From Lentisphaeria bacterium (GTDB lineage: Bacteria; Verrucomicrobiota; Lentisphaeria; JABSQK01; JAWLHB01), in contig JAWLHB010000009.1 in NCBI GenBank assembly GCA_041690595.1, forward strand, positions 142,538 to 206,537: a stretch of DNA of 64,000 nt, given 5' to 3'. Numbering within the stretch: position 1 is the stretch's first letter; each line of letters opens with the position of its first letter. The notes beneath the pieces were generated by a model. That model was not told the DNA's origin, made no database searches, and saw only the letters and a list, made by a program, of their open reading frames with translations. The translations under genes and the position numbers were made by a program. This document shows, in pieces, positions 2,751 to 58,754 of this stretch.

Positions 2751-4478
2751 ATGTACGAGATCGTTATAAAGCTGCCGGGAAAACCGGAAACCACTGGTAA
2801 GCTGATGCCGGGCACGTACCGCATCGGCAGCAGTCCCGCCGCCCACATACAGATCGAGCTACCAGAGGTATCGAACCGGCATGCCGCGCTCATTGTGCGG
2901 GAAAACCAGGTTCTGGTTGAAGATCTCGGCAGCACCAATGGTACCCGCCTCGATGAGAAGCCCGTCAGCGGCGGTCCGGTAACGGTGCGTCCCGGTGGTG
3001 TCATCCACATCGGGCAGGCGACGATAACCGTGCGCGACAAGGTGGGCGTCGATCGTGCCGTCAAAATGAACGACACGATGATCGGCGCCGAGCTTTCGCG
3101 GGCCAAACATGACCCCGCCGTGAGCAGCCATGCCGCCACCCCCTCCCAGCGCATCAATCAGAGCGCCGCCATGCTGCTGGTATCCGGTATTCCCTACGAG
3201 TACCGCAAAGTCGTCCAGCAATTGAAGCGCGAGGTTCATGAGGAACTCCTGAAACGCATGAACCTCAAGAACCTGACGCTCTCCGGTGCAAACGCGGAAG
3301 AAGTGCGTCGCCAGGCAGGCGAAACCGTGCGCGCCATCCTGCTGGAAAGACGGGATCGCATTCCCGCTGCCGTCAAGATGGACGTGCTGCAGGAGGAATT
3401 GGTCAACGAAGCCGTGGCTCTGGGGCCCTTGGAAGGACTGCTCGCCAACCCCGATGTCACGGAAATCATGGCCAACGGCAGCACGAATATCTACGTTGAA
3501 ATGAAGGGGACTCTCCATCGCACCGACCACATGTTTGCCGATGATGACCAGTTGCTCACTGTGATCGAACGCATCGTCGCCCCCCTCGGCCGGCGCATTG
3601 ACGAGAGCCAACCTCTGGTCGACGCGCGACTTCCCGACGGCAGCCGCGTCAACGCCATTATCCCCCCCCTCGCGATCGACGGCCCAACCCTCACCATCCG
3701 CAAGTTCTCCAGTGAAGTCATGACCGCGGACATGCTGATTGGCTTCGGCTCCATGAACCAGGAGATGGCCGAGTTCCTCCGTCTGGCCGTCCTCTTGCGC
3801 AAGAACATCCTGATCTCCGGCGGTACCGGCTCCGGAAAGACAACCCTGCTGAACATGCTGAGCAACTTCCTGCCCAACACGGACCGCATCGTGACCATCG
3901 AGGATGCGGCGGAGCTGAAGTTGCAGAAGGACCATGTGGTGCGCCTCGAGTCGCGGCCGCCAAACATCGAAGGTCGCGGCGCGATCGCCATTCGCGACCT
4001 GGTGCGCAACTCGTTGCGCATGCGCCCGGATCGCATCGTGGTCGGCGAGTGTCGTGGCGGCGAGGCGCTCGACATGCTTCAGGCCATGAATACCGGCCAC
4101 GACGGCTCGCTGACCACGGTCCATGCGAACTCTCCCCGCGATGCCCTCTCCCGCCTCGAAACCCTCGTCCTGATGGCCGGCTTCGACCTACCGCTGCGGG
4201 CAATCCGCGAACAGATCACCAGCGCCATCGCCCTCATCGTCCACATCAGCCGCATGAAGGACGGCACCCGCAAGGTACGGGCTATCACCGAAGTCACCGG
4301 AATGGAGACGGATGTGATCACTACCCAGGAGATCTTCGAATTCGAGCCGCAGGGGCTGGACGAGAATGGCAAGGTGCTTGGCCGCCACAAGGCCAGCGGC
4401 GTGGTGCCCACCTTCATCGACGAGATGCAGTCGGCGGGCGTTCCCTTCGACATCGGAATCTTCAACGATGGGCAATAA
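2751..4478 (+). CDS. cpaF: FHA-domain-fused CpaF/TadA pilus ATPase
   Basis: N-terminal FHA-like segment (VSNRHA...DLGSTNGT), Walker A GGTGSGKT, LRMRPDRIVVGECRG, MNTGHDGSLTTVHAN. Confidence 0.92.
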   Translation: MYEIVIKLPGKPETTGKLMPGTYRIGSSPAAHIQIELPEVSNRHAALIVRENQVLVEDLGSTNGTRLDEKPVSGGPVTVRPGGVIHIGQATITVRDKVGVDRAVKMNDTMIGAELSRAKHDPAVSSHAATPSQRINQSAAMLLVSGIPYEYRKVVQQLKREVHEELLKRMNLKNLTLSGANAEEVRRQAGETVRAILLERRDRIPAAVKMDVLQEELVNEAVALGPLEGLLANPDVTEIMANGSTNIYVEMKGTLHRTDHMFADDDQLLTVIERIVAPLGRRIDESQPLVDARLPDGSRVNAIIPPLAIDGPTLTIRKFSSEVMTADMLIGFGSMNQEMAEFLRLAVLLRKNILISGGTGSGKTTLLNMLSNFLPNTDRIVTIEDAAELKLQKDHVVRLESRPPNIEGRGAIAIRDLVRNSLRMRPDRIVVGECRGGEALDMLQAMNTGHDGSLTTVHANSPRDALSRLETLVLMAGFDLPLRAIREQITSAIALIVHISRMKDGTRKVRAITEVTGMETDVITTQEIFEFEPQGLDENGKVLGRHKASGVVPTFIDEMQSAGVPFDIGIFNDGQ

Positions 4479-8325: not shown

Positions 8326-10335
8326 ATGTCAGCGCAATCCGATAATCTGGACCCTGAGAAGAAGGATGCCGCATTTGGGCGCGACGCCATCCCCGTCCTT
8401 GTCGGGGAAGATGATGAAGGCATGTGTCGGCTGATTCAGCGGGTCCTCGAACGCGAAGGCTTTCGCGTCACCACCGCCACCAGCGGCAACGGCGTTCTCG
8501 CACAGCTTGAATCCCTGCAGGGAGAAGCTGTCCTCCTTCTCGATTATGATCTCACCGACATGCAGGCCGACGCCGTCGCGCTGGAGTGGCAGAAACGCCG
8601 GCGCCGTCCCACCTTCGTCATCATGACCGGCAAGGGCGACGAATCCCTTGCCGTCAAGCTCATGAAGCTCGGAGCCACCGATTACCTCGTCAAGGACTCC
8701 ACCCTCCTCAACCGCTTGCCGCGTGTCCTGGACGCCGCCCTCGAACGACGTTCCACGCAACAACGCCTGGAAGACGCCGAAGAACTCCTCCGCCAGAACC
8801 AGGCCCGCATGGACCTCGCCCTCTGGGCCGCCGAAGCCACCCCCTGGGAATGGCAGGTTCACAACGACGAGCTGCGCTTCGGCAAACTCCTCTCTTCCCT
8901 GCTTGGCGAAGATGAGCACGAACAATGCCTGCCCTTCGCCGATTGGCTGGCACGCATCCACGTCGACGATCGCGATCGTACCGCCGCCGCCTTCGCCCGC
9001 CTGAAATCCGGTCGCCGCCCGCTCCTCGAGGTCGACTACCGCGTTGCCGGTACCGCTGGTCGTTGGCACTGGCTCATGCAGCGCGGCAAAGGGGTTGATT
9101 ATGCCGACGGCGGACAGCTGCTTCGGGCAGCGGGAACCATCGTCGAAACCACCGCCCAGCGGGAGTTGGAAGGGCAGCTTCGCGATGCGCAGAAGATGGA
9201 GGCCATCGGCCGACTGGCGGGCGGAATCGCCCACGACTTCAACAATCTCATGACCATCGTCATCGGCAACTGCCAGCTGGGTCTGCAGCGGCCCGATGAG
9301 CCAGCCAAGATGTGCGAACGCTTCGAACGCATCATGAAAGCCGCCAAACGGGCCGGCGATCTCACTCGACAACTCCTCGCCTTCAGCCGCCGACAGGTTC
9401 TCCTCCCCAGGCAGGTCGCCGTCAACGACGTCATCGGCAATTTCATCGAGATGGTCGACCGAACCATCGGGGAAGATATCGAGCTACAGGCCAAGCTCGG
9501 TACCGAGAAGATGACCGTCTACGCGGATCCCGGACAGCTTGAACAGGTTCTCCTCAATCTCGCCATCAACTCGCGTGAAGCCATGCCGGGTGGCGGCAAG
9601 CTGGTCGTCCGCACCTTCTCCCTGAACCGCGCCGAATACTACCTCCGCTATACCGAAAAGACCGACGCGGCCAACATGGTTTGCATCCAGGTCGAAGATA
9701 ACGGCAAGGGCATCGACGCAGAGCAGCTCAAGAACATCTTCGAACCCTTCTACACCACCAAGGAACCGGGCAGCGGCACCGGGCTCGGCCTCGCCACCGT
9801 CTATGGCATCATCAAGCAGAGCGGCGGCCATGTCGCCGTGCGCAGCGCCCCCGGTCAGGGCACCTGCTTCGACATCTGTCTTCCCATGATCAATGGCGAC
9901 GGCACCGACGAAAAGGCCGATACCGGCGAGCTGCCCGGTCTTGGCGCCGGCACCGAACATGTCCTCGTCGTGGAAGATGAACTGCTCGTCCGCCAGATGG
10001 CCAGGGAATCCCTGGAATCGCTTGGGTACCGCGTCCTCGAAGCCGAAAATGGTGCCGAGGCCCTCCGCGTCTATCTCGAACATCGGGATGAGATAGACAT
10101 CGTGGTCTCCGACATGATCATGCCCGTGATGAGCGGTCAGGAACTGGCCACGCGTCTCCGCGCCATCGCCCCCAGCCTCCCCCTCATCTTCATGTCCGGC
10201 TATCCCCTCCAGCACGACAAGATCCTCAACCAGCTCGGCGATTACACCGTGTACCTGCAGAAGCCCTTTTCCCCCATCCGCCTCTGCAACCTCGTCCGCT
10301 CCACCCTTGACGCCATCCCCAGTTCCAGCGATTAG
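8326..10335 (+). CDS. Hybrid sensor histidine kinase REC-PAS-HisKA-HATPase-REC (CckA-like)
   Basis: N-terminal receiver, PAS/PAC (IHVDDR), H-box GGIAHDFNN, N-box QVLLNLAINS, G boxes DNGKG and FYTTK..G.GTGLGL, C-terminal receiver; no TM segment. Confidence 0.92.
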   Translation: MSAQSDNLDPEKKDAAFGRDAIPVLVGEDDEGMCRLIQRVLEREGFRVTTATSGNGVLAQLESLQGEAVLLLDYDLTDMQADAVALEWQKRRRRPTFVIMTGKGDESLAVKLMKLGATDYLVKDSTLLNRLPRVLDAALERRSTQQRLEDAEELLRQNQARMDLALWAAEATPWEWQVHNDELRFGKLLSSLLGEDEHEQCLPFADWLARIHVDDRDRTAAAFARLKSGRRPLLEVDYRVAGTAGRWHWLMQRGKGVDYADGGQLLRAAGTIVETTAQRELEGQLRDAQKMEAIGRLAGGIAHDFNNLMTIVIGNCQLGLQRPDEPAKMCERFERIMKAAKRAGDLTRQLLAFSRRQVLLPRQVAVNDVIGNFIEMVDRTIGEDIELQAKLGTEKMTVYADPGQLEQVLLNLAINSREAMPGGGKLVVRTFSLNRAEYYLRYTEKTDAANMVCIQVEDNGKGIDAEQLKNIFEPFYTTKEPGSGTGLGLATVYGIIKQSGGHVAVRSAPGQGTCFDICLPMINGDGTDEKADTGELPGLGAGTEHVLVVEDELLVRQMARESLESLGYRVLEAENGAEALRVYLEHRDEIDIVVSDMIMPVMSGQELATRLRAIAPSLPLIFMSGYPLQHDKILNQLGDYTVYLQKPFSPIRLCNLVRSTLDAIPSSSD

Positions 10336-10344
10336 CTGGAGCCG

Positions 10345-11127
10345 TCAGCGTGACTTGGGGGACCAGGGAATGAAGGCGCTGGTGGTACGGCAGTAATCGG
10401 CATAGTCGGATCGGTGACTGAGAGCCTGCTTCTCGGTATGCGGTATGCCGGTGACCTTCCACAGAAAGAGGAGCATGATCAACGGACCTGCCACGCCCCA
10501 TCCCCACCAGGGGGAGCCGATCGCGAAGCAGAGATAGGCAAACCAGTGCAGCCACTCGAAGAAGTAGTTGGGGTGGCGCGAGTAGCGCCAGAGCCCCTGG
10601 CGGCAGGTAGTCCCACGGTTGGCGGCGTTTTCGCGAAAGCGAGTCAACTGGCGATCGGCGATGAATTCCCCGACCAGCGCAACGCCGCCGATGAGAAGTC
10701 CGATCATATCCCAGCCACGCATCCAGGGTGCGGGGTTGGCGGCCGCGGCGAAGATCGGGGCGGCAAAGAGCAAGATGAAGCCGGCCTGGAGCTGAAAGAA
10801 GAGAAAGAAGCCCACCTGAGCGTAGGCCCCCATGGCGCGCCGCATGCGATCATATCGCCCATCCTCCTCAGCCTTGCCGTTGAAAACGCGTTTGAAGAGA
10901 ATGAAGCTGCCCAGGCGGGCGGACCAGATGAAGGCCAGCAGACAAACGACGAGGGTCCGCGCCGACTCTCCAGGTGCCCAGAGAAAGAAGGCGATGGCTG
11001 CCCCGGTCAGGCCGTAGGCCCAGCCGGCATCGACGATGCCCGCGTCGTGGGTGAAGAATTGTATGAGCCAGAGGAGGGTCATCCAGACAGCGGCACCGAT
11101 AGCCAGATAGAGGAAGATCGATATCAT
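10345..11127 (-). CDS. DUF1295 family (steroid 5-alpha-reductase-like) membrane protein
   Basis: IVDAGW, EDGRY, ADRQL..F, GLWRYSRHPNYFFEW, Y...TSAFIPW. Confidence 0.9.
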   Translation of the reverse strand: MISIFLYLAIGAAVWMTLLWLIQFFTHDAGIVDAGWAYGLTGAAIAFFLWAPGESARTLVVCLLAFIWSARLGSFILFKRVFNGKAEEDGRYDRMRRAMGAYAQVGFFLFFQLQAGFILLFAAPIFAAAANPAPWMRGWDMIGLLIGGVALVGEFIADRQLTRFRENAANRGTTCRQGLWRYSRHPNYFFEWLHWFAYLCFAIGSPWWGWGVAGPLIMLLFLWKVTGIPHTEKQALSHRSDYADYCRTTSAFIPWSPKSR

Positions 11128-11663
11128 GATGAACGCTCGGGGTTGACGGTATTGGATTGGCAGTGGCTTTCAATTGCGGCATGTGCAAAGAGCAGCAGTG
11201 GCATGCAGAGAGCCCATTCGATGGCCACCGGAAACAGGCCGGCAGGCAGGCTGACCGCACCGAGTCTGGCACCGCTGGCGTAGGCAAGCGGCCCACCGAC
11301 CGCGCCAAGGAGCGCCGCCAGAACATAGCGCTGGCGCAGCCAGCCCAGTGAGCAGGGAAGAGCAGTAGCCAGATTTACCCAGAGGCAGATCATGAAGGGC
11401 GGGCTGAGAGGGTATGACCAGCGAGGATAGGTGATCGCGCCAGTCTGTGCAAGGATGGTATCGGCCATCAACCCCAAGGCAGCGGCCGCTGCGGCAACGG
11501 CAAGGATCTGGCATCCAGGCGTCAGCCAGCGGCGGTGCACTTCCAGGCTGAGCGCGACCGTCACGGGTCCTGCCCAGCCTGGCCCAACCGCGGCGTCCAG
11601 GACAACCACGAACCAGACGAGTTGGACGAGGATCAGATTGGCGATGAAAGGGCTCATCTTCAT
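11124..11663 (-). CDS. DUF2878 family membrane protein
   Basis: N.IL.Q..WF, PP.MICLW, SLGWL, GAVGGPLAY.SGARLGAV. Confidence 0.85.
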   Translation of the reverse strand: MKMSPFIANLILVQLVWFVVVLDAAVGPGWAGPVTVALSLEVHRRWLTPGCQILAVAAAAAALGLMADTILAQTGAITYPRWSYPLSPPFMICLWVNLATALPCSLGWLRQRYVLAALLGAVGGPLAYASGARLGAVSLPAGLFPVAIEWALCMPLLLFAHAAIESHCQSNTVNPERSS

Positions 11664-12949
11664 ACGCTCAATACGGGGGGTAGTTGGCAGCGGGGCTTGG
11701 TCAGCAGCATCTGCACATCGCCCAGGCAGCGTTCGGCAAAGCCCCCCTCGCAGTAGGAGAAGTAATAGTCCCAGAGCCGGATGAACGCGTCAGAGAAGCC
11801 GAGGGCGCGTACCTCGTCGAGGCGGTCGAAAAAGCGCTGCCGCCAATCGTGAAGCGTACGGGCGTAGTGTGGGCCGATATCTTCAAGATGAAAGAGGCGC
11901 AGGTCGCTCTCCTGGCGGATGGCGGTGGTCATCGAGTGGATCGACGGGATGCTGCTGCCGGGGAAAACGTAACGCTGTATGAAGTCAACGGAACGCCGGG
12001 CACCATCGTAGAGCCGGTCGTCGATCGTGATTGCCTGCAGGAGCATGCTGCCGTCGGGCTTGAGCAGTCGTGAGCAGGTACGGAAATATTCACCCACATA
12101 CTGCCAGCCAACGGCCTCGATCATCTCGATCGATACCAGCTTGTCGTACTGACCTTTCAACTGGCGGTAGTCGTTGAGCAGGACGCTGACACGGTCCGCG
12201 AGACCGGCGTCGGCGACACGCTCGACCGCCAGTTTGTGCTGTTCGGCGGAGATGGTCGTGGTCGTGACGCGGCAGCCATACCGGGTAGCTGCATGGATGG
12301 CGAAGCCCCCCCACCCGGTACCGATCTCCAGAACATGATCGGCCGGCGTCAGAGCCAGCTTGCGGCAGATGCGGTCGACCTTTTCGATGGCAGCCTCTTC
12401 CAGGCTGGTGTCGGCGCGCGGATAGACGGCGGCTGAATACATCATCGTCGGGTCGAGAAAGAGCGCAAAGAAGTCGTTGCTCAGATCGTAGTGCGTGGCG
12501 ATGTTTCGGCGGCTACCGGCGACGGTGTTGCGGTGCATGGCGTGGATGGCTTTGCGTACGGGGGAGGCTAACCTGGCGAAGCCGCCCTCCATGCCGTCGA
12601 GCACCTCGCGGTTGCGAATGAAGAGGCGGACGAGGTCAGTCAGGTTGGGGCTGCGCCAGAACCCCCGCATGAATGCTTCGGCGGCGCCAATGCTGCCGCC
12701 GAGCACGGTATCCGCGTAGAAAGCGGGATCGTCGACGATCAGTTCTGTATCGAGATCGGTGTCGCCGGGCTGTCCGTAGGTCGCGGTGGTGCCATCTTCA
12801 TGGAGGCGGAGGCGCCCGTGGCGAAGGCGGCTGAGTTGGCGATGCAGAAGGGAACGGCAAACGCTGGTTACCCAATCGGACGAGCGGACGCGGTTCACGG
12901 CGGCGGGGCGTATGAGATCGGTGGCCAGAGTAGCGGAACGGAGGGTCAT
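11660..12949 (-). CDS. cfa: Cyclopropane-fatty-acyl-phospholipid synthase family SAM methyltransferase (UfaM-like)
   Basis: NIATHYDLSNDFF.LFLD..MMYS, VLEIGTGWGG, DYR, SIEMIEAVG, FIQRYVFPG, W.YY..YCEGGF. Confidence 0.9.
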   Translation of the reverse strand: MTLRSATLATDLIRPAAVNRVRSSDWVTSVCRSLLHRQLSRLRHGRLRLHEDGTTATYGQPGDTDLDTELIVDDPAFYADTVLGGSIGAAEAFMRGFWRSPNLTDLVRLFIRNREVLDGMEGGFARLASPVRKAIHAMHRNTVAGSRRNIATHYDLSNDFFALFLDPTMMYSAAVYPRADTSLEEAAIEKVDRICRKLALTPADHVLEIGTGWGGFAIHAATRYGCRVTTTTISAEQHKLAVERVADAGLADRVSVLLNDYRQLKGQYDKLVSIEMIEAVGWQYVGEYFRTCSRLLKPDGSMLLQAITIDDRLYDGARRSVDFIQRYVFPGSSIPSIHSMTTAIRQESDLRLFHLEDIGPHYARTLHDWRQRFFDRLDEVRALGFSDAFIRLWDYYFSYCEGGFAERCLGDVQMLLTKPRCQLPPVLSV

Positions 12950-12962
12950 GACATCGACTCCA

Positions 12963-13739
12963 TTAGTCAGTGGTGGCTGTCTGAGGGTGGTGATGGAAAG
13001 GGGTGCCCTTGCACCAGTGGCGAAAAGCCTGCCAGTAGATGCCGGCCACCACGCGGATGGTCATCAGCGGATACTCCGCGAGGACGCGGGTCAGGGCCAG
13101 ACCGGTTATCGGTCGGCGCTTCAGGGTGAGCGTTGCGTCGAAGACTTTGTCGCCCTGCCGCCAGTTCTCCATGTGCACATTGAGATGCTCACCGGGCTGC
13201 CGGAAGCGCCAGTCATAGGTCATGTCCATGCCCATGAACGGGGAAACATGGAAGCGCTTGGGCATCCGCCATTGGAGGAAGTGGGGGCTGGGGTGCTCGC
13301 TGTGGCGCCGGTCCAGAACGTAGGCGTGGCGCTCGCCCCACGGGGTGTTGGTGATCTCCGCGACAATCGCCTCGACCTGCTGCCCATCGGCGCTGAAGCA
13401 GTAGTAGAAGCTGACCGGGTTAAAAATGTGCCCCGCGTATCGCAGATGGGTGAGCAGGCGTATCGGACCGACCGGCTCCCAGCCGAGGCGACGCTTGACC
13501 AACTCCCGCACGGCCTCGTCCAGCGGCAGCGTGGCCGGACCAAGATAATCGGCACGGCGAAACCAGGCCGGGGCCGGCCGTCGCGCCGACCAGAGCGGAT
13601 TGACGTCGAAGAGGTCAGGCAATTCCGCAAGGTCGATATACATCATGCAGAGCCGGTAGCGGAAGGCGTGGGGACGCAAGCCGTTGCGGCGGTGGCGTAC
13701 CCAACCGGCGTAGATGCAGCTTTTCGGATCGGTAATCAT
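12963..13739 (-). CDS. DUF1365 family protein (UfaO-like)
   Basis: G.VRHRR...HAFRY, FNPVSFYYC, EITNTPWGERH.Y, K.FHVSPFM, IYWQA. Confidence 0.92.
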   Translation of the reverse strand: MITDPKSCIYAGWVRHRRNGLRPHAFRYRLCMMYIDLAELPDLFDVNPLWSARRPAPAWFRRADYLGPATLPLDEAVRELVKRRLGWEPVGPIRLLTHLRYAGHIFNPVSFYYCFSADGQQVEAIVAEITNTPWGERHAYVLDRRHSEHPSPHFLQWRMPKRFHVSPFMGMDMTYDWRFRQPGEHLNVHMENWRQGDKVFDATLTLKRRPITGLALTRVLAEYPLMTIRVVAGIYWQAFRHWCKGTPFHHHPQTATTD

Positions 13740-14995
13740 GCGATGACACTCTCCTGATTGTACGCCAGACCTCGACAGACTTCCAGAGCGCTCACGACCC
13801 CATCCTCATGGAAGCCGTTGCGCCAGTAGGCTCCGCAATAGTGGGTGCGCTCGCGGCCACTGATCTCGCCGTGACGGGCCTGCGCGGCCACTCCCGCCGC
13901 TGTCATGAGCGGATGATGATACGTGTAGCTGCCGAGAATCGTGGCGGGATCGATGCGGTCGCGGCAGTTGAGGCTGACAAGGTACTCCTCGTCGGCGGTG
14001 AGCGATTGCAGGATGTTCATGTTGTAGGTCACCGCGACGCGTTCCCGAGCATGGCGCGGCAGGTGGTAGTTCCAGGCGGCCCAGGCAAGGCGACGGCGCG
14101 GCATCAGGGAAGCGTCCGTGTGCAGCACCACGTCGTTCTCCTGGTAAGGAAGGGCTCCCAGGATCGCCCGCTCACTGGGCGTGGGGTCGGCCAGCAGGCG
14201 CAGCGCCTGGTCGCTGTGGGTCGCCACGATGACATGGTCGAACTCTTCCGCTTCACCGTTGACCGGGATCACCTGCACATGGTCCTCGGAACGACGGATC
14301 CCGGCGACCGGCGTCCGCAGTCGAATACGATGTCCGAAGGGTTTGATGAGCGCATCCACGTAGCGGCGCGAGCCGCCCTGTACGACCCGCCACCGCGGCC
14401 GGTCGCTGACGCTCAGCATGCCGTGGTTCTTGAAAAAGCGAATGAAGAAGCGAACCGGAAAGCGGAGCATGGCATCCGCCGGCGCGGACCATATGGCGGC
14501 CCCCATGGGAATGACGTAGTGCTCTCGGAAGTGGTCCGAGTAACCGTTGGCGGTCAGATAGTCACCGAGCGTAAGGGTATCTTCACCGTCGGTAGCCATG
14601 GCAGGAGCTTCGCGGTTGAAGCGAAGGATGTCGCGGATCATCCGGTGAAAGCTTGGTCGGAAAAGGTTGCTTCGCTGGGCAAAGAGCGTGTTGAGGCTGG
14701 TACCGTTGTACTCCAGGCCGCTGCGCTCGCAACGCACACTGAAGCTCATCTCCGTCGGCTGAGAATCGACGCCCAATTCGTCCAGCAGGCGGATGAAGTT
14801 GGGATAGGTCCAGTCGTTGAAGACGATGAAACCGGTGTCGATCTCCCAGGTGCGCCCGCCGCGCTCCACCTCGACCGTGTGGGTGTGGCCGCCGACCCAG
14901 TCGCTGCTTTCGAAGAGGGTCAGGTCATGCTCGCGATGCAGGCGGTGGGCGCAGGTCAGGCCGGCGATGCCGGTACCGATAATGGCTATCTTCAT
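13736..14995 (-). CDS. FAD-dependent oxidoreductase, amine-oxidase family (UfaD-like)
   Basis: MKIAIIGTGIAGL Rossmann motif, GGHTHT, DTGFIVFN..TYPNF, AWAAWNY, CGAYW.NGFHEDG. True start at 14995, an ATGA overlap with the desaturase stop. Confidence 0.92.
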   Translation of the reverse strand: MKIAIIGTGIAGLTCAHRLHREHDLTLFESSDWVGGHTHTVEVERGGRTWEIDTGFIVFNDWTYPNFIRLLDELGVDSQPTEMSFSVRCERSGLEYNGTSLNTLFAQRSNLFRPSFHRMIRDILRFNREAPAMATDGEDTLTLGDYLTANGYSDHFREHYVIPMGAAIWSAPADAMLRFPVRFFIRFFKNHGMLSVSDRPRWRVVQGGSRRYVDALIKPFGHRIRLRTPVAGIRRSEDHVQVIPVNGEAEEFDHVIVATHSDQALRLLADPTPSERAILGALPYQENDVVLHTDASLMPRRRLAWAAWNYHLPRHARERVAVTYNMNILQSLTADEEYLVSLNCRDRIDPATILGSYTYHHPLMTAAGVAAQARHGEISGRERTHYCGAYWRNGFHEDGVVSALEVCRGLAYNQESVIA

Positions 14996-15924
14996 CGAGT
15001 CTTCTCCAGAAGGTTGCGATGGCGGACTTCGACGGGTACTGGGCGAATTGCCCACACCAGCCCCAGCCGGCCGAACAGACGCAGGATGTAGTAGGTGATG
15101 TCGATCTCCCACCAGTAATGACTCTGTCGGCAGGAGACAGCATAGCTGTGGTGGTTGTTGTGCCACCCTTCGCCCAGCGTAAGCAGGGCGAGCAGCAGGC
15201 TGTTGCGGCTGTCGTCGCCGGTGGCGTAGCGGGCACGTCCCAGCCGGTGGGCCAGCGAATTGATGCAGCAGGTCGCGTGGAAAACGATCACCGTCGAGAT
15301 TGCCCCTCCCCAGACCAGCAGTTGCCATCCGGAAGTCCCAAGAGCGGGCACGTATGCCCGCAGTACCTCACCCATCAGGTAGAGCAGCGCGAAGTAGAGC
15401 GCCGGGGCCACGATGTCATAGCGATCGAGGAAGCGCAGCTCCGGATACTTTGCCAGGTCGCGAACGGCAGACAAATCCGTTCGAAAATTGCGAGGGGTCA
15501 GAAACCAGAGGACATGACTCCACCAGAACCCATGCTGGCGAGGCGAATGAACGTCTTCGGTCGTGTCGGAGTACTGATGGTGCCTCCGGTGATGGGCGGC
15601 CCACCAGAGCGGACCGCGTTGGGCAGCGGAATTCCCCAGGACGGCAAAGACAAACTGGGTCACCCGTCCCGTCTGGAAGCTCTTGTGACTGAAATACCGA
15701 TGGTAGAATCCAGTTATCGCGAACATGCGGACCAGGTAACCCGCAACTGCCACGATCAGCGCCGTCCAACTCCAACCCACCCAGATGATGCCGAGACAAG
15801 CCGCATGCAGCGCAACGAAGGGAAGGACTCGAAGTCGATCGATCCGGTTCGCGTCGGCTGGAACCGGATCTTCGGCGGCGCCGGAATCGATCCAGAGCCG
15901 GATGGTATTCAATGGGCTCCTCAT
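14992..15924 (-). CDS. Fatty acid (delta-9-like) desaturase
   Basis: Three His boxes HRYFSH, HHRRHH and HNNHH (GEGWHNNHH). ATG at 15924 is preceded by GAGGAG; a GTG at 15969 is an alternative start. Confidence 0.92.
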   Translation of the reverse strand: MRSPLNTIRLWIDSGAAEDPVPADANRIDRLRVLPFVALHAACLGIIWVGWSWTALIVAVAGYLVRMFAITGFYHRYFSHKSFQTGRVTQFVFAVLGNSAAQRGPLWWAAHHRRHHQYSDTTEDVHSPRQHGFWWSHVLWFLTPRNFRTDLSAVRDLAKYPELRFLDRYDIVAPALYFALLYLMGEVLRAYVPALGTSGWQLLVWGGAISTVIVFHATCCINSLAHRLGRARYATGDDSRNSLLLALLTLGEGWHNNHHSYAVSCRQSHYWWEIDITYYILRLFGRLGLVWAIRPVPVEVRHRNLLEKTR

Positions 15925-15983
15925 GCTTCTCCTCAAAGGGTGCGCGGGTTGGTCGGGGATCTTCTTCACCTACAATAGCCGCA

Positions 15984-16013
15984 TGTCTAAGTTTTGTCTA
16001 TCTTGATCGTCAA
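15984..16013 (-). promoter_or_regulatory. Putative CarH operator and sigma70 promoter of the lipid operon
   Basis: On the minus strand TAGACA occurs at 15995-16000 and 15984-15989, exactly 11 bp apart; a -35-like TTGACG lies at 16008-16013. Confidence 0.65.
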
Positions 16014-16042
16014 AGCTTTGGCAATATATTTTGTTTTTTATA

Positions 16043-16075
16043 TCGACAACTTATAGAAACTTCTTCGACAACGAC
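16043..16075 (+). promoter_or_regulatory. Putative CarH autoregulatory operator (three 11-bp direct repeats)
   Basis: TCGACA(16043) actta TAGAAA(16054) cttct TCGACA(16065): 11-bp phasing of TnnACA-type hexamers just upstream of the regulator ATG at 16088. Confidence 0.7.
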
Positions 16076-16087
16076 TACTGTAAAGAT

Positions 16088-17035
16088 ATGAAAGACACCT
16101 CGAACTATCCGATTCGGGCGGTGAGCCAGCGCACCGGGCTGAGCGCTCATGTGATACGTGCCTGGGAGAAGCGGTATGGCTTCCCGGAGCCAGCTCGCAG
16201 CGAGACCAATCGCCGCTTTTACAGCCAGACTGACATCGAGACGCTGCTGCTGTTGAAGCAGCTTATCGACAAAGGTTACGCGATAGGCCAGATCGCCCGC
16301 CTGCAACCCGACGAGCTGCGTCAGCTGCTGGCTACAGTCTCTGGTTCCAAGGCGAACCGAGCGGAGGCAGGCACGGAGGCAGGAAGCGTCGCGGAGGAAA
16401 GTCTGGTCCGCTGCCTGGATGCCGTCAACGCGTTGTCTGCCGAAACGCTGCTGGCGGTTTTGCGCCAGGCCACGCTGACCCTCAGCAAGCCTCACCTGCT
16501 CGAAAAACTGATTTCACCGTTGATGGAGGAGATCGGTAACCGCTGGGAACGCGGCGAGCTGCGCGTGGCAAACGAACACATGGCGTCGGCCGTGGTGCGC
16601 ACCTTTCTGGTCAACCTGCTCGATGCCGCGACGCCTGACGCCGAGGCACCGGCCATCGTGGTGACCACACCGCGCGGGCAGACGCACGAGATCGGAGCGC
16701 TGATGGTCGCAGTTCGGGCCGCTTCGCTGGGTTGGCGGGTCACCTACCTGGGGGCCGATCTGCCGAGCGACGAAATCGGCGCCGCCGCGCTAACCCTGAA
16801 GGCAACGGCCATCGCGCTCAGCCTGGTGCATCCCGCGGGCCGCATCGAGGTGGTTCACGAGATACACGCGCTACATGATGCCTTACCGGCAGTACCGATC
16901 ATCGTCGGCGGCAGATCCATCGAGAGCTATCGTCTCCTTCTCGAAGCTCGTGGCATCGACTGTCTCGCCAGTCTGGCCGATCTGCCCGGCGCCCTCCAGC
17001 GCAAGGTCCATTCCCAGAAGCCCTCATTGCATTGA
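16088..17035 (+). CDS. CarH/LitR-type MerR-family regulator with cobalamin-binding domain (putative AdoB12 photoreceptor)
   Basis: MerR HTH with IRAWEKRYG; W-x9-EH (WERGELRVANEH); B12 motif QTHEIG...YLGADLP...ALSLV...IVGG. Confidence 0.9.
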   Translation: MKDTSNYPIRAVSQRTGLSAHVIRAWEKRYGFPEPARSETNRRFYSQTDIETLLLLKQLIDKGYAIGQIARLQPDELRQLLATVSGSKANRAEAGTEAGSVAEESLVRCLDAVNALSAETLLAVLRQATLTLSKPHLLEKLISPLMEEIGNRWERGELRVANEHMASAVVRTFLVNLLDAATPDAEAPAIVVTTPRGQTHEIGALMVAVRAASLGWRVTYLGADLPSDEIGAAALTLKATAIALSLVHPAGRIEVVHEIHALHDALPAVPIIVGGRSIESYRLLLEARGIDCLASLADLPGALQRKVHSQKPSLH

Positions 17036-17092: not shown

Positions 17093-18247
17093 TCAACCGA
17101 ACTGAACGAACTCCGGGGTGTCGAGGAAGGCGGGTGTCGTGCCGCGCCATTGCCGACGATAAAGCTGGCGACGCTCGAGGAGCCAGATGTCCATGAAGAG
17201 CGTGCAGCCGGGCGCGGTATCGTCCGGGTGGCAGGGGGTGCCTGTCAAGCACATGGGACCTGACGAATCGCGCTGCTCCATGAGTTGCTTGAGATTGTCA
17301 TAGCTGGGATTGAGGGAAAGCTCATCGATGTAACGGGCCATATTGCACCACGTACCGTCGCAGAGACGCCAGAAGGCGGCATCGGCACAGTTTTCGTCCT
17401 GGCCTGTCAGCTCGAGGTGTCGGCGGCGCATGGCCCGCTGATGGGCGCTGATGCCGGGATCGAGCGCGCCCATGCCGGTGATCCAGTTGATGCCGTTGGC
17501 GTTCGGACCGCGAGCCGCCACCCGGCAGCGGGTCTTCTCGAAGGCCACGGAGTTGCCCTTCTGGTCGTGCACCAGCAGATTCTGGCTGCTCCAGAAGTAT
17601 GTGTACCGTACCAGGAACTCACGCGCCTCGTCGACCGTGGTGCAGAGTTCCTTCGCCATTTCGCGCGCATCGGCGGGAAAGATCTCGGGCGGTGGCTCGT
17701 CGATATGCAGCCCGCTGCCGACGCCGTCGAAGCAGAGTGGCTCGTTCCAAGGCCAGGGGGTGCCCGGAGCAATGGGCGGACGCGGCGTGAAATAGGTCAG
17801 CGGATCATCGACGTTCTTGGCGTGCAAAGCGCCGCGATCGCTCTCTGGAACGTAAACGATGCGGCATTTCTCCGGCTGGGGAGCCGCATGCCAGGCGCGG
17901 CCAGTCTCTTCCACCAGACGCACATCCCGCCAGAAGTTGAGCGAGACGCTGTAGGCGATGGTCAGCTCATCGACGCCGGCATCGCGCATGCCGCAGTACT
18001 CCTCCTCGAGTAACTCACGGTAGCCGCGAAGCTCGGGGTAGATAGAGAGATCCGGTACCGCATCGAGCCGCTCCCGGTGATAACAGCTGACCCGCGTCGC
18101 GATCTCTTCATCGGAGATGTCCAGCAGTAACGCCAGGCCATGCGCGGCATCCAGCCAGTAGCGCCGCCCAACATAGCTGTCCGCCAACATCCTGCGCCCC
18201 CTGGAAAGCCCCTTGGCGTAAGCCCTTTCTTTCCGCTCTGTTTGCAT
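17093..18247 (-). CDS. Hypothetical protein, possible Ntn-hydrolase (peptidase C45/AAT-like)
   Basis: Internal K-C-RIVY...LHAKNVD resembles the C45 Cys-nucleophile ...hxxNxD pattern; a later NLLVHD.KGNSV.FE strand pair. Confidence 0.5.
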   Translation of the reverse strand: MQTERKERAYAKGLSRGRRMLADSYVGRRYWLDAAHGLALLLDISDEEIATRVSCYHRERLDAVPDLSIYPELRGYRELLEEEYCGMRDAGVDELTIAYSVSLNFWRDVRLVEETGRAWHAAPQPEKCRIVYVPESDRGALHAKNVDDPLTYFTPRPPIAPGTPWPWNEPLCFDGVGSGLHIDEPPPEIFPADAREMAKELCTTVDEAREFLVRYTYFWSSQNLLVHDQKGNSVAFEKTRCRVAARGPNANGINWITGMGALDPGISAHQRAMRRRHLELTGQDENCADAAFWRLCDGTWCNMARYIDELSLNPSYDNLKQLMEQRDSSGPMCLTGTPCHPDDTAPGCTLFMDIWLLERRQLYRRQWRGTTPAFLDTPEFVQFG

Positions 18248-18420: not shown

Positions 18421-20769
18421 ATGAGCCCGATACCCAGCCTGACTATCCATGAACCCGATCTTCCTTTTGCGACGGGGATGCCGGTGCCGGCAGCCGAAGC
18501 CGAAAGCTTCCTCTCGGGCGCGCTGCTGACCGATGCCGACGGAGCGGTTCATCCCCTGCAGGTGGCAGCGCTGATGCCGCCGACGCCGGATGGATGCCGC
18601 TGGCTGGAGATTGCGGGCGCTGGCGCTGCTGCCGGTCCGGCCACGGTGGCGCCGGGCAGTATCGATGCCGGAACAAGCCTGGTGGCCGGCGAAGCGGGGG
18701 CGGCGCTGCTGACGGTGGGTAAGCTGCGCCTGACCTTGAAGACGGATCCCGCGTCAGCCCCTCTGGTCGTGGAGAGGCGCTGCGACGAGGGCAAGTGGAC
18801 ATGCCTGGGCGAGTTGTCACCGGAGGTCGTCACCGAAGGTGGTCTGGTGCATCTGGAAGGGCCACGAGCCGAGCGGGAGCTCCGGGTGCTGCGGAACGGA
18901 GCCGTACGCGGCCAGGCGGAACTTACTGGCCGCCTCGAGCAGCGGCCCGGCGAGCCGTCCATGCACTACCGGCTGACCGTCGAGGTCTGGCAGGGAGTGA
19001 CTGGAGCGCGCATCGACTTCATGCTTACCCACGCGGTGGCCGGGGTTGCCGAGATGGCCGTGCAACGCGCCACTCTGCGCGGACTATGGGAGGTGGGAGA
19101 ACCCACCTTGCGTCGCTTTCTGCAACAGAATCACGGCCCCTACTACAAGCGCCGCGAAGTCGCCAATCCGCGTAGCGTGGCGCTGATCACTGACGACAGC
19201 TGTGGCCCCGTCCATGTGCGCGACGCCCAGATGCTGCTCGATACCGTCGCTTATGCCCACTATCTGCAGGCGCCGTTGATCCAGACGGGCGACTGGCTCA
19301 CCCTTGCCGGCCCTGAACGCTGGGTGACCATGCGACTGCGCGATTTCGTTGCCACGCGTCCGAATCAATTGCGCAGCGAGGGACAGGAGTTGAGCTACGA
19401 CCTGCTGCCGGACGGCCATGGTTGCTCCTGGCCACAAGGGCGACGCAAGGAACAGACGTTGCTCCTGACCTTCGGCACAGGCGAATCGACGCAAGCTGCC
19501 GGCGCCATGGCCAATCTTGAAGCCCTGCTCGTCGATGGCCGGGCACAGCCGGCGCCGGCCTACCTCGCAGCCATGCGCAATTTTGACCTTCACCACGCGA
19601 TGCCGGCAGTCAAAGGGGAGAACGTGCGTCTGAGCATCATCCTGCGTCGTCTCTGCCAGTTGAAGACGCCAAGCTGCAAGTGGGATCTGGGGGATACGAT
19701 TGACCCTGGCTATACGCGCACCTATCCAGCGGTGCCGCACCGGCTCGAATGGCTGCCGGGTGCGCCGGAGGTGCCGGTTCGCTTCGATGCCGCCGGCCGC
19801 TCGCTCTGGGGTGACAGTGTGCCGCACCTCATCGAGCCGGTCTGGACAAACAACGAGTACGACATCCTGCATGCGCTGGCCAGCGAAACAATGCGCTGCG
19901 GCGGCAATGACCACCTGCAGATGCTGCGCTGGGCCTCCAGGCACGTTATCGAGATTGACTTCCGCAGCTACTCCGACGACCGCTGGCACCACCAGGCGCA
20001 GCCCGCGCATTCCGCTCATCACAACACCACCGGCGCCTACCCCAGTCATTTCTGGACGCAGGGCCTGCTCCAGTATTACGCCTTGACAGGTGACCGGGAC
20101 GCGGAGCAGGTGGCCCTGGCGCTTGGCGACAAGATCATCGAGCACAATCACGTGCCGGAGATGCGTCAATGGGGCTTCGATCGGGAGTTGGGGTGGGGTT
20201 TGCTCTCGCTGGTCTGCCTGCTCGAAGCCGGTTATTCACGTTACCGACAGGAGGCCGATGCCATCGTCGAGTACCTGATGGCCTACGACCGGGCCGCCTA
20301 TGCCGGTGCCGTCAACCTCTCCGCCGGCCGCGCCGGCCGCAGTCTCGAACGCCAGATGGTCGACAATGGCTTCGGCTATTCATCCATGGTCGAGGCAATC
20401 GACCGCTACCAGCGGGTGACTGGGCGTGACGATACCGCCGCGTGGCTCGAGACACTTCTCCGCCAGCTCAAGGGCGAGTGCTGGAATGCCATCGACGACG
20501 GAGAAGTACCGGGTGTTCGCGGCATGATGCCGATGGTCATGTCGATCGGCTACGCGCGGACCGCAGACGAGGATTTCATCGCGGTCGGGCTGATCATGCT
20601 GGAGTCCTTCTTCGATGCGCTTTCCATGGGAGAGGAGGCGCACTTCGGCTACGTGAAGTCGAATGCCATGCTCTACCGTGGTCTGGCACGCTTCCTGGGC
20701 GACGCACACCGGCTCGACCGACTGGCCCCCTTCGAGTTCGCCTCACTCCTCCGGCGACGCGGGAGATAG
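18421..20769 (+). CDS. Large hypothetical protein, beta-sandwich plus alpha/alpha barrel (YetA/exo-rhamnogalacturonan lyase-like)
   Basis: 782 aa with GGAGA SD; motifs NNEYD, SHFWTQGLLQYY.LTGD, RELGWGL. Confidence 0.55.
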   Translation: MSPIPSLTIHEPDLPFATGMPVPAAEAESFLSGALLTDADGAVHPLQVAALMPPTPDGCRWLEIAGAGAAAGPATVAPGSIDAGTSLVAGEAGAALLTVGKLRLTLKTDPASAPLVVERRCDEGKWTCLGELSPEVVTEGGLVHLEGPRAERELRVLRNGAVRGQAELTGRLEQRPGEPSMHYRLTVEVWQGVTGARIDFMLTHAVAGVAEMAVQRATLRGLWEVGEPTLRRFLQQNHGPYYKRREVANPRSVALITDDSCGPVHVRDAQMLLDTVAYAHYLQAPLIQTGDWLTLAGPERWVTMRLRDFVATRPNQLRSEGQELSYDLLPDGHGCSWPQGRRKEQTLLLTFGTGESTQAAGAMANLEALLVDGRAQPAPAYLAAMRNFDLHHAMPAVKGENVRLSIILRRLCQLKTPSCKWDLGDTIDPGYTRTYPAVPHRLEWLPGAPEVPVRFDAAGRSLWGDSVPHLIEPVWTNNEYDILHALASETMRCGGNDHLQMLRWASRHVIEIDFRSYSDDRWHHQAQPAHSAHHNTTGAYPSHFWTQGLLQYYALTGDRDAEQVALALGDKIIEHNHVPEMRQWGFDRELGWGLLSLVCLLEAGYSRYRQEADAIVEYLMAYDRAAYAGAVNLSAGRAGRSLERQMVDNGFGYSSMVEAIDRYQRVTGRDDTAAWLETLLRQLKGECWNAIDDGEVPGVRGMMPMVMSIGYARTADEDFIAVGLIMLESFFDALSMGEEAHFGYVKSNAMLYRGLARFLGDAHRLDRLAPFEFASLLRRRGR

Positions 20770-38523: not shown

Positions 38524-39708
38524 TCAGCCATCTTCCACTTTCTTCGGGTTGAACCAGCCGGCGGCATTGTCTGGACGGATATCGGTGAGATCGCCACGAT
38601 AATGGCGCAGCTCGCGCGGCTCGAAGGGATGCTCGGCAATGGCCTCCTCGTTCAGCTCGATGCCCAGCCCCGGGCGATCCGGAACCCACATGCGACCACC
38701 TTCGAAGCGGATGCTTTCGTCACAGATATCCTTGCGCCAGGGGACATCGCTGGCCATGGTTTCGAGCAAGTGGAAGTTGGTGGTGGAGGCGGCGATCTGC
38801 AGGGCCGCGGCATTGGCCACCGGGCCGCTTGGATTGTGAGGGCAGATGGCGATGTGGTTGGCTTCCGCCTGGGCGGCGATCTTCTTCACCTCGCCGATGC
38901 CACCCACGTGGCTCAGGTCGGGCTGCACATAGTCTGCACATCGCAACTGAAAGAAGCGCTGGTAGTCCCAGCGACTGTAGATGCGTTCGCCGGCGGCAAT
39001 GGGCACGCGCACCCGCTGCTTGACCTCGAGGAGGGCTTCCAGGTTGTCCGGAGGGACCGGCTCCTCAAACCAGGTGATGTCGAAGGCTTCGAGCGCGCGC
39101 CCGATGCGCACCGCCGTCGCCACGTTGAATCGCCCATGTCCTTCGACGAGGATCTCCACGTCGTCGCCGACGGCATCGACCACGGCTTCGACGCAAGCCA
39201 GCGCCTGGCGGAGCTGGCTCTTCTCGATGTTCAGGTAGGCGGCGCCGAAGGGATCCCACTTGAGACCTCGGAAGCCTTGCGCAACGGCCGCGCGGGCCTT
39301 CTCGGCGAACTCCTCCGGCCGCTTCGCCGGCGCAAACCAGCCGTTTGCGTAGCAGGGCACGCTCTCATGCACGCGCCCGCCGAGAAGCTGGTAGACGGGA
39401 ACGCCGAGCGCCTTGCCCTTGATGTCCCAGAGCGCCATCTCTATCCCGGAGAGGGCACTCATGAGGACGGGGCCGCCCCGCCAGTAGACGTTGCGGTAGG
39501 TCTCGTGCCAGATGGCTTCGATGTCGTGGGGATCGCGCCCGATCAGGCTCCGCTCCAGTTCCAGCATCGCCTGGGCGACGGTCTGTTCGCGGTACTCCAG
39601 GGTCGCTTCGCCGACGCCGTGGATTCCCTCGTCGGTGGAGACCTTGACGAAGACCCAGTTGGTGCGGTAGGCGTGGCAGATCAGGGGACGAATCGAGGTG
39701 ATCTTCAT
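38524..39708 (-). CDS. Mandelate racemase/enolase-superfamily acid-sugar dehydratase (galactonate dehydratase-like)
   Basis: GVGEATLE, ALWDIKGK.LG.PVY.LLGG, KWDPF, EEP, GER, QPD, PHNP.GP, PGLGIE. Confidence 0.88.
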   Translation of the reverse strand: MKITSIRPLICHAYRTNWVFVKVSTDEGIHGVGEATLEYREQTVAQAMLELERSLIGRDPHDIEAIWHETYRNVYWRGGPVLMSALSGIEMALWDIKGKALGVPVYQLLGGRVHESVPCYANGWFAPAKRPEEFAEKARAAVAQGFRGLKWDPFGAAYLNIEKSQLRQALACVEAVVDAVGDDVEILVEGHGRFNVATAVRIGRALEAFDITWFEEPVPPDNLEALLEVKQRVRVPIAAGERIYSRWDYQRFFQLRCADYVQPDLSHVGGIGEVKKIAAQAEANHIAICPHNPSGPVANAAALQIAASTTNFHLLETMASDVPWRKDICDESIRFEGGRMWVPDRPGLGIELNEEAIAEHPFEPRELRHYRGDLTDIRPDNAAGWFNPKKVEDG

Positions 39709-46046: not shown

Positions 46047-47086
46047 GGGCAATCTCCGAGGGTAAAAACGGTGCGAATGGTGGCCAGTTGCTCCATCTGG
46101 TGAAAAGCATCCTGCCATCGATCGATGGAAAGCGAGTCAGTGATCAAGGCTTCGGCCGGGACTCTGCCGTCCCGCAGATACTCCATTGCCTTGCACCAGT
46201 TGCGGCGGCGTGAGCTGTACGAGAAGGCGAGGGTGGCTGCCTTGGCCACCAGTGTGTCCCATGCAACCGGAATGGTCGGTTTGCCGGTGATGCCGATGGC
46301 CACCATCCTGCCGGCGCGTCGCACCAGCCTGGTCGCCAGATCGATGGAGGCGGCGGCTCCCGCGGCTTCCACAACGACATCGGCGCCGAGCCCGTTCGTC
46401 AGTTCCAGAAGGTGAGCGGCAAGGTCGTCGGTCTGCACGTTGAAGCAGTCCAGCCCGAGCTTAGCGGCACAGGCGAGGCGGTCGTCGTCGCGATCGGTGC
46501 CTGCCATGATGACGCGCCCGGCTCCTTCGGCGCGGGCGACCAATCCGGCGAGCAGGCCGATGGCGCCCGGCCCGAGCACCACGACCACGTCGCCCCGGGT
46601 GATTCCGCAGCGGTCCTCGACGGCATGCGTAGCCACCGCCAGCGGCTCCGATAGTGCGGCGGCCTGCCAGCTCACCCCGTCCGGAATGTGGTGAAGCAGC
46701 ACGGCGGGCAGCACGACGTAATCCGCGAAGCAGCCGTCCCGCCTGAAACCGATTGCCCGCTTCTCCGGGCAGAGGTTGGGATAGCCGGAGGCGCAGACGC
46801 CGCACGTTCCACATGCCTGAGGATTGTTCTCGCTGACGATGCGGTCGCCAACGCTCACCTCCACCACCCCAGGACCCAGCTCACATACTTCTCCGGAGAA
46901 CTCGTGGCCCAGGATCAGCGGCGGCTCACAGGGAAAGCTGTCATGATAGAGATGCAGGTCGGATGCGCAGACTGCCGCCACCTTTACCCGCACCAGCACC
47001 TCGCCCGGCCCGGGCACGGGTGTCGCCACCTCGCGCAACTCCGTCAGCCCGGGACCTTTCGCATATTTGACCAGCGCTCGCATCAT
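46043..47086 (-). CDS. Zinc-dependent alcohol/polyol dehydrogenase
   Basis: CASD.H, GHEFSG, C..C..C......C, EP, GPGAIG. Confidence 0.92.
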   Translation of the reverse strand: MMRALVKYAKGPGLTELREVATPVPGPGEVLVRVKVAAVCASDLHLYHDSFPCEPPLILGHEFSGEVCELGPGVVEVSVGDRIVSENNPQACGTCGVCASGYPNLCPEKRAIGFRRDGCFADYVVLPAVLLHHIPDGVSWQAAALSEPLAVATHAVEDRCGITRGDVVVVLGPGAIGLLAGLVARAEGAGRVIMAGTDRDDDRLACAAKLGLDCFNVQTDDLAAHLLELTNGLGADVVVEAAGAAASIDLATRLVRRAGRMVAIGITGKPTIPVAWDTLVAKAATLAFSYSSRRRNWCKAMEYLRDGRVPAEALITDSLSIDRWQDAFHQMEQLATIRTVFTLGDCP

Positions 47087-48849: not shown

Positions 48850-48865
48850 GGAGTTGTCCTTCGTA

Positions 48866-58707: not shown

Positions 58708-58754
58708 GACAATCTTTTGAGCACACGTTGAGGCCACCAACCCGAGGAGAATCC

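Follow-up and report, generated by a model that had tools for sequence, protein, structure and literature searches.

In the 64-kb window analysed here, a stretch of the draft genome of a Lentisphaeria bacterium (8.1 Mb in 99 contigs, 97% complete, 61.5% GC), a regulator gene of the CarH/LitR type stands head-to-head with six tightly coupled genes resembling those for bacterial furan fatty acids, and it is likely that regulator and operon (positions 10345–17035) together form a light-derepressed unit for lipid remodelling. This reading draws on features that are directly observed, namely the domain architecture and motifs of the regulator, an operator whose score is unique in the genome, the order of the operon genes and the recurrence of the pairing in other bacteria; the regulator very probably controls the six-gene operon. 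By sequence, the locus joins two known systems, CarH photoregulation and a furan-fatty-acid operon. To our knowledge, CarH-type B12 photoreceptors have nearly always been studied as switches of carotenoid genes, and bacterial furan fatty acids nearly always under the control of sigmaE-ChrR or of light-oxygen-voltage (LOV) proteins and class II LitR. A search of the accessible literature did not find a class I CarH of the adenosylcobalamin (AdoCbl) type linked to these lipid genes, although an earlier mention may exist.

Domains were called on the window proteins with Pfam, equivalogs were checked against NCBIfam and motifs were verified by script. The genes are as follows (aa, amino acids).

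10345–11127, minus strand: DUF1295 membrane protein, 260 aa (Pfam DUF1295 1e-61; Steroid_dh 2e-6)
11124–11663, minus strand: DUF2878 membrane protein, 179 aa (Pfam DUF2878 3e-29)
11660–12949, minus strand: CMAS-family S-adenosylmethionine-dependent acyl-lipid methylase, 429 aa (Pfam CMAS 9e-84)
12963–13739, minus strand: UfaO-like DUF1365 protein, 258 aa (Pfam DUF1365 6e-83, whole profile)
13736–14995, minus strand: UfaD-like flavin adenine dinucleotide (FAD)-dependent oxidoreductase, 419 aa (Pfam Amino_oxidase/NAD_binding_8 8e-29)
14992–15924, minus strand: stearoyl-CoA desaturase (SCD)-type membrane fatty-acid desaturase, 310 aa, first gene of the operon (Pfam FA_desaturase 4e-19)
16088–17035, plus strand: class I CarH/LitR-type regulator, 315 aa (MerR_1 3e-18, B12-binding_2 5e-11, B12-binding 2e-12)

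Four of the five operon junctions are ATGA overlaps, and the junction from the DUF1365 gene to the CMAS gene is a 13-bp gap with GGAG. A preliminary description of this DNA had proposed a coupled six-gene operon head-to-head with a MerR regulator, and the Pfam domains and the four ATGA junctions agree with it; the families it had named for searching (MerR_1, B12-binding_2, B12-binding, DUF1365 and CMAS) were each matched as named. Its gene layout stands and only the start of the desaturase changes. The open reading frame (ORF) list began that gene at GTG 15969; the start is most likely ATG 15924, since GAGGAG precedes this codon and GTG 15969 falls within the predicted promoter. The intergenic DNA between regulator and desaturase spans 163 bp and has 40% GC against the 61.5% of the whole genome.

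By its architecture and motifs, the regulator is a class I CarH/LitR protein. It consists of a MerR winged helix-turn-helix domain, a four-helix bundle with Wx9EH and a Rossmann B12-binding domain with His200, and its residues 4–270 align with CarH of Thermus thermophilus (5c8d, 3whp; E 4e-34), in register at the Trp, at the Glu-His pair and at the His ligand, a match that settles its fold. The CarH motifs on which the preliminary description had relied, RxWExRY, W-x9-EH and the B12-binding H-x-x-G, were all recovered, at residues 24–30, 153–164 and 198–203 respectively. The recognition helix reads RAWEKRY, and none of the 28 aligned homologues departs from its W26, E27, R29 and Y30, nor from W153, E163, H164, Q198 and H200; the Wx9EH motif, WERGELRVANEH, is intact in 77/77 members of the subfamily. 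The B12 motif is QTHEIG-x41-SLV-x26-GG, whose sole departure from D/ExHxxG-x41-SxT/V-x22-27-GG is Gln for Asp or Glu. This substitution, which had been remarked on before, is indeed present as Gln198, but it is not peculiar to the regulator: because it is invariant in the 28 aligned homologues it is a trait of the subfamily, and it recurs in 58 of the 65 motif-matching regulators (of 77). All four signature elements given in PMC11796333 (GxxW, EH, GxxH and GxxxP) occur, as GNRW, EH, GQTH and GADLP, and the Rossmann domain that is missing from class II LitR is present (PF02310, residues 190–292, 2e-12). The best NCBIfam match is TransRegCarH, at 143 bits and under the 400-bit equivalog cut-off. 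The family to which the regulator belongs is large, with 1058 proteins at E <= 1e-10 (8000 candidates scored); the same three domains occur in 120 of 120 matches listed, among which the best non-self identity to the regulator is 49%, in a set of 5.8 billion proteins.

Class I CarH/LitR proteins of Thermus thermophilus, Myxococcus xanthus, Bacillus megaterium and Streptomyces likewise have three parts, with RxWExRY, Wx9EH and a His-on B12 motif, in which the His is the lower axial ligand. In the account of PMC9304148, Wx9EH touches the adenosyl moiety and B12-independent CarA no longer has it, and an intact Wx9EH together with a classic B12 motif marks an AdoCbl-dependent CarH; on these sequence features the regulator falls on the CarH side of the division. 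It would resemble these proteins in binding AdoCbl, in its oligomeric state and in its response to light. Whereas CarH systems regulate carotenoid genes, the target here would be a fatty-acid-modifying operon.

The DNA between regulator and operon strengthens this reading. The CarH site is described in PMC8156234 as an 11-bp direct repeat, nAnnTnnACAn, present in three tandem copies in Thermus and in four in Bacillus megaterium. The corresponding features of the window are these, the promoters coming from a consensus scan.

15983–16004, minus strand: putative operator of two exact tandem 11-bp repeats nAnnTnnACAn, reading AAGATAGACAAAACTTAGACAT on the minus strand
15972–16000, minus strand: predicted operon promoter, with -35 TAGACA (16000–15995), a 17-nt spacer and -10 TATTGT (15977–15972)
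16003–16030, plus strand: predicted regulator promoter, with -35 TTGATC (16003–16008) and -10 TATATT
16039–16071, plus strand: possible second, weaker repeat set of three 11-mers (5, 3 and 4 of 5 core positions), in the regulator leader

The repeat pair is the sole match in the window, where 0.06 are expected, and at least one match arose in 5 of 100 shuffles. Across the 8.1 Mb of the genome there are two exact matches, this pair being one of them, and when genome sites were ranked by a short-motif consensus score extended over 18 positions it came highest, at 17/18, followed by three sites at 15/18. Of these runners-up, on C1, C18 and C15, one is found where a GntR gene ends, in front of an unannotated 110-aa ORF, another within a gene and another between convergent genes, positions which do not suggest a second regulon member. 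The operon promoter is the only promoter-like site on the minus strand between 10200 and 17200. Its -35 falls within the upstream repeat, the pair as a whole covering the -35 and the spacer, and the predicted regulator -35 abuts the pair, so that the two promoters stand back-to-back within about 30 bp; since the repeats hold one -35 and abut the other, a single bound complex should occlude both. In sequence terms, then, a CarH-type operator, the top such site in the genome, overlaps the predicted operon promoter, and tandem 11-bp repeats over a sigma-70-type -35 are a feature shared with known CarH systems. The weaker set at 16039–16071 is the only site in the window to score at least 12/15, yet the whole genome contains 26 sites reaching that score and the set lies in surroundings of 40% GC, and it is therefore given little weight. 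An Rfam scan of the window returned no family at gathering score, and a riboswitch is therefore taken to be absent from the operon leader.

The repeat pair follows the regulator well beyond this genome. Eighty loci encoding homologues of the regulator were collected from many phyla, 79 of them with sufficient upstream DNA, and in 19 of the 79 the 300 bp ahead of the regulator gene contain an exact pair. Pairs number 25 in 22,856 bp of such upstream DNA and 4 in 1,182,624 bp elsewhere, a 323-fold difference in density. When the flanks of 27 exact pairs were scored, including those of the window and of a same-order relative (G002), the neighbouring 11-mers reached at most 3/5 in 23 and at least 4/5 in only 4, and hence a two-repeat operator is the norm of the subfamily. 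Several loci (L019, L024, L026, L029, L084) have two repeat pairs about 85–130 bp apart, sometimes in opposite orientation, which may point to looping or to the control of two promoters.

The operon itself resembles the furan-fatty-acid genes at the level of family, gene order and size. According to PMC7380195, UfaM methylates cis-vaccenate, the flavoprotein UfaD (RSP1091) introduces a second double bond and UfaO (RSP1090, a DUF1365 protein) inserts O2 to give the furan. The order FAD oxidoreductase, DUF1365, CMAS and two small genes is common to our locus, to RSP1091–1087 of Rhodobacter (Cereibacter) sphaeroides and to RPA2571–2568 of Rhodopseudomonas palustris (PMC7380195), and the products are of similar length, with 258, 429, 179 and 260 aa here against 250, 402, 186 and 245 aa for RSP1090–1087; the flavoprotein of the locus has 419 aa. 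The same source reports that furan fatty acids do not require RSP1089 (402 aa, CMAS-like), RSP1088 (186 aa) or RSP1087 (245 aa) and that R. sphaeroides UfaM is encoded outside the operon, and it gives the operon-embedded CMAS gene of R. palustris, RPA2569, as UfaM. In both species the furan genes are described as being under sigmaE-ChrR control, responding to singlet oxygen, and as lacking a desaturase; our locus differs on both counts.

Taken singly, the enzymes are matched at the level of the family. The DUF1365 protein corresponds to UfaO in this sense, and the flavoprotein, which reaches no NCBIfam equivalog, is encoded, like ufaD, directly upstream of the DUF1365 gene, here with an ATGA overlap. 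The CMAS protein has two domains, as in the phospholipid cyclopropane fatty acid (CFA) synthases (5z9o, E 1e-53; 6bqc, E 1e-50), and falls under every NCBIfam equivalog cut-off; it is a candidate UfaM equivalent on this match, which is equally compatible with an RSP1089-type protein or a true CFA synthase, and as the sole true CMAS protein of the genome it would have to perform the methylation in any furan synthesis. UfaM proper yields a methyl-branched trans-olefin in place of a cyclopropane. The flavoprotein, DUF1365 and CMAS genes are each single-copy in the genome. The DUF1295 protein weakly resembles steroid 5-alpha-reductase and isoprenylcysteine carboxyl methyltransferase. Residues 33–294 of the desaturase align with the structures of mouse and human stearoyl-CoA desaturase (4ymk, 4zyo; E 5e-26), and its three His boxes, HRYFSH, HRRHH and HNNHH, are common to the stearoyl-CoA and acyl-lipid delta-9 desaturases, a family from which delta-9 regiospecificity may be presumed; unlike the SCD1-type comparators, it is the first gene of a predicted light-switch operon. 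Its type is single-copy, and because four more FA_desaturase genes lie elsewhere in the genome it is an extra enzyme and, as the preliminary description had supposed, a dedicated one. The product would be a furan, methyl-branched or cyclopropane acyl chain.

The rest of the genome is consistent with this picture. SQS_PSY (phytoene/squalene synthase), the ChrR cupin (PF12973) that would accompany sigmaE-ChrR control, CbiB and FabA above cut-off all returned no match in the 97%-complete genome, and DNA_photolyase matched once, on another contig. The earlier remark that neither a crt gene nor a photolyase gene lies in the window thus holds, and for SQS_PSY it extends to the genome. A PduO-type adenosyltransferase is present, together with two cobalamin riboswitches, one of them ahead of a TonB-receptor plug protein (BtuB-like). 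Because riboswitches, TonB receptor and adenosyltransferase occur and CbiB was not found, the gene content fits, on present evidence, B12 salvage followed by conversion to AdoCbl, and a lack of carotenoid synthesis by the CrtB route. Downstream of the second riboswitch (C42:260–458, L097) lies an ORF, 492 aa or longer, that matches nothing in Pfam and could encode a B12-related transporter or enzyme not yet described.

The pairing of this kind of regulator with lipid genes is not confined to the window. At least three ufa-like genes occur in 7 of the 80 loci (L033, L035, L040, L052, L055, L067, L087), a lower bound because many of the loci are short; the seven come from Verrucomicrobiota, Latescibacterota and Gemmatimonadota, and four of them also have a desaturase. 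In Latescibacterota (L040, L067) a same-strand ufa-like run begins with the regulator gene, and in L052 and L087 the clusters are convergent with the regulator gene. The CMAS gene is again followed by DUF2878 in L052, L112 and L113, and DUF1295 recurs in the clusters of L033, L040, L052, L055, L067, L087 and L110. Other neighbours within 6 kb of the 80 regulators were clustered and one representative of each cluster was annotated; the numbers of loci, out of 80, are listed here.

CrtI-like desaturase: 22/80 loci
Fasciclin: 13/80 loci
Phytoene synthase: 12/80 loci
NmrA/DUF2867: 12/80 loci
SRPBCC (polyketide-cyclase-like): 11/80 loci
Lycopene cyclase: 10/80 loci
Sigma-70 (full-length): 9/80 loci
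Photolyase: 7/80 loci

The fasciclin, NmrA/DUF2867, SRPBCC and sigma-70 neighbours seem to belong, as yet uncharacterised, to a light-response gene set. On a tree of 77 regulators, which came from a quick search and in which L035 lies outside the 6-kb labelling, eight ufa-linked rows are scattered, requiring 8 changes for 8 rows, the level of shuffled labels; the tree largely tracks the phyla of the hosts.

Among 40 genome relatives, a full-length homologue of the regulator occurs in G002 only and a DUF1365 homologue in 10. G002, a relative from the same order, has the same divergent CarH layout (L110), with repeats at both promoters. In all seven loci examined around the DUF1365 homologues of relatives, desaturase, flavoprotein, DUF1365 and CMAS genes occur together. 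Since the relatives keep the lipid module and their regulators differ, the light or stress input seems to have been exchanged in this lineage.

Some of these modules have features of their own. Behind the G002 cluster stands a second, divergent CMAS-family gene (L110:14037–15335), 28% identical to that of the window, possibly for a second, FufM-like methylation step. In another same-order relative (G003, L113:5805–6371), an extracytoplasmic function (ECF) sigma factor with Sigma70_r2 and r4_2 faces a lipid module of desaturase, flavoprotein, DUF1365, CMAS, DUF2878, SnoaL and short-chain dehydrogenase/reductase (SDR) genes. In relatives of family f9, a module of SDR, flavoprotein, DUF1365, CMAS and DUF2878 genes ends, in the two loci where this was observed (G040, L112:9555–10448; G031, L111:8301–9182), with a 297-aa protein that combines HTH_17, B12-binding_2 and B12-binding domains. 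Tyr replaces the His ligand in this protein and ER replaces EH, so that His-on AdoCbl sensing has probably been lost; the closest PDB entry is 8jbs, a 'putative cobalamin binding protein'.

Light control of related genes has been described with other sensors. In Pseudomonas, class II LitR proteins (PplR1-3, PmlR1/2) with LOV partners make a cluster of 'ufaM' and an FAD oxidoreductase light-inducible (PMC9758184), so that a LitR-family MerR regulator accompanies such a cluster there as it does at our locus. The class II proteins are described in that paper as keeping only the four-helix bundle, as being thought not to bind B12 and as taking their signal from the LOV partner, whereas the regulator of the window has the Rossmann B12 domain. 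The Pseudomonas cluster is given with photolyase and SDR genes, a desaturase not being among those listed, and our operon has a desaturase and neither of the other two. A CFA-synthase gene of Vibrio cholerae is reported to be induced by blue light, with ChrR-sigmaE and a MerR-type regulator governing the light response (PMC5241685).

We propose that in the dark the regulator would combine with salvaged AdoCbl into an oligomer which, on the repeats at 15983–16004, would block RNA polymerase at both the operon and its own promoter. Ultraviolet, blue or green light would cleave the Co-C bond, the oligomer would disassemble and both promoters would become active. The SCD-like desaturase would then use O2 to place a cis double bond in saturated acyl chains of membrane lipids, the CMAS enzyme would methylate it, the UfaD-like flavoprotein would add a conjugated second double bond and the UfaO-like DUF1365 protein would insert O2 and close the furan ring, with DUF2878 and DUF1295 as accessory membrane proteins. 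The furan or methylated chains would quench singlet oxygen and radicals in place of carotenoids, whose synthase was not found in the genome. The preliminary description had already seen in this locus a B12-dependent light switch for lipids, and those of its parts that sequence can test turned out favourably, namely the CarH features, the operator, the ufa-type order, the absence of SQS_PSY and the extra desaturase. We put forward more tentatively, as a possibility and no firmer, the narrower proposal of a B12 photoreceptor with one target, turning saturated chains into furan fatty acids as a light-induced photoprotectant in place of carotenoids and belonging to a very large, unstudied CarH subfamily, of the Gln type, mostly lacking His132 and with frequently paired two-repeat operators, whose disassembly would differ from that of Thermus.

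Several observations weigh against such a scheme. The regulator has Gln198 where Asp or Glu is usual in the B12 motif, and Glu154 follows its Trp, where Thermus CarH has His132. PMC10442372 describes His132 as becoming the upper cobalt ligand after photolysis (the bis-His link) and an H132A variant as barely changing upon light. The operator has two repeats, not the three of Thermus or the four of Bacillus, and in a search for a third the 11-mers beside 15983–16004 score 0/5. Because RSP1089, RSP1088 and RSP1087 are dispensable and UfaM lies elsewhere in R. sphaeroides, the CMAS protein of the locus may not be UfaM. The absences noted above rest on a draft genome and are not proof. The two substitutions would suit a regulator that binds the operator and yet senses no light, reporting B12 status instead or acting as a CarA-like, B12-free repressor, and the HTH_17-B12 proteins of the family-f9 relatives, without the His ligand and the EH His, indicate that regulators of such modules drift. 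We nevertheless regard this as quite improbable: the Wx9EH that CarA has lost (PMC9304148) is intact here and throughout the subfamily, and the neighbours of the subfamily are mostly light-protection genes (CrtI-like, phytoene synthase, lycopene cyclase and photolyase). The His after Trp, moreover, is reported in PMC9304148 for 'many' CarH homologues only, being semi-conserved and not strictly defining, and it occurs in 8 of the 28 aligned homologues and 9 of the 77 subfamily regulators, the regulator of the window not being among them.

It is also conceivable, if unlikely, that regulation is as proposed and the product is different: methyl-branched, cyclopropane or otherwise oxidised chains, or another lipid. 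Desaturase and CMAS would then be the effective pair, and DUF1365, DUF2878 and DUF1295 would serve in an undescribed role. The CMAS protein does match cyclopropane synthases best, RSP1089 in the same operon position is reported as dispensable, no role is known for DUF2878 or DUF1295, and the second CMAS gene in the G002 cluster shows that the chemistry differs among relatives; set against this are the adjacent, translationally coupled UfaD-like and UfaO-like genes, as in two proven pathways, the R. palustris precedent of an operon-embedded CMAS as UfaM and the presence of just one CMAS in the genome. Very improbable, finally, is an adjacency without regulatory meaning, in which the repeats would serve autoregulation of the regulator alone and the operon would answer to another factor. 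In its favour, the repeat pairs in most related loci were scored relative to the regulator gene, an ECF sigma factor faces the same module in G003, and the clusters of L052 and L087 are convergent with the regulator gene. The repeats at our locus, however, are oriented toward the operon and include its predicted -35, the back-to-back promoters are such that one complex should occlude both, no comparable site exists elsewhere in the genome, and in L040 and L067 the regulator heads the same operon.

The light-derepressed lipid unit that we favour would have features of its own within the two systems it joins: a delta-9 desaturase at the head of the operon, an operator of two repeats and membership in a CarH subfamily usually without His132. 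Its simple layout, in which a single regulator would act through a single 22-bp operator on a single operon, unites the CarH and furan-lipid fields, and membrane-lipid chemistry would be added to what CarH controls. Furan-type lipids are suggested as a photoprotectant of uncultured bacteria that lack pigments, and photoprotection would be tied to B12 supplied by neighbours, as the genome appears to salvage B12 and not to make it. The pairing is found in Verrucomicrobiota, Latescibacterota and Gemmatimonadota as well as in the window's own lineage. With its regulator the locus provides a CarH variant that naturally lacks His132, which would be useful for work on mechanism and for optogenetics, and the desaturase-first layout suggests a way of rebuilding the furan-lipid pathway in hosts without a suitable unsaturated substrate.

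A sequence-word search of sequencing runs for 10345–17035 returned no RNA runs and six DNA runs, with small shares. On the far side of the operon a hybrid histidine kinase with two receiver domains and PAS_3 (8326–10335, plus strand) is convergent with it and stops 9 bp from its end; a connection between the two is not evident. Beyond the regulator lies a divergent pair of ORFs without Pfam match, of 384 aa (17093–18247, minus strand) and 782 aa (18421–20769, plus strand), of which contig C41 has a second copy (44% and 47% identity); for the 384-aa ORF, the closest clusters of the atlas bear the name acyl-CoA:6-aminopenicillanic acid (6-APA) acyltransferase (Ntn-hydrolase-like) and are commonest in Planctomycetota. 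The window further encodes a type II/IV secretion ATPase fused to FHA (2751–4478) and glycoside hydrolases of families GH42, GH127 and GH116 (39705–41792, 47083–49200 and 58728–61235), from which the organism looks like a polysaccharide-degrading heterotroph.

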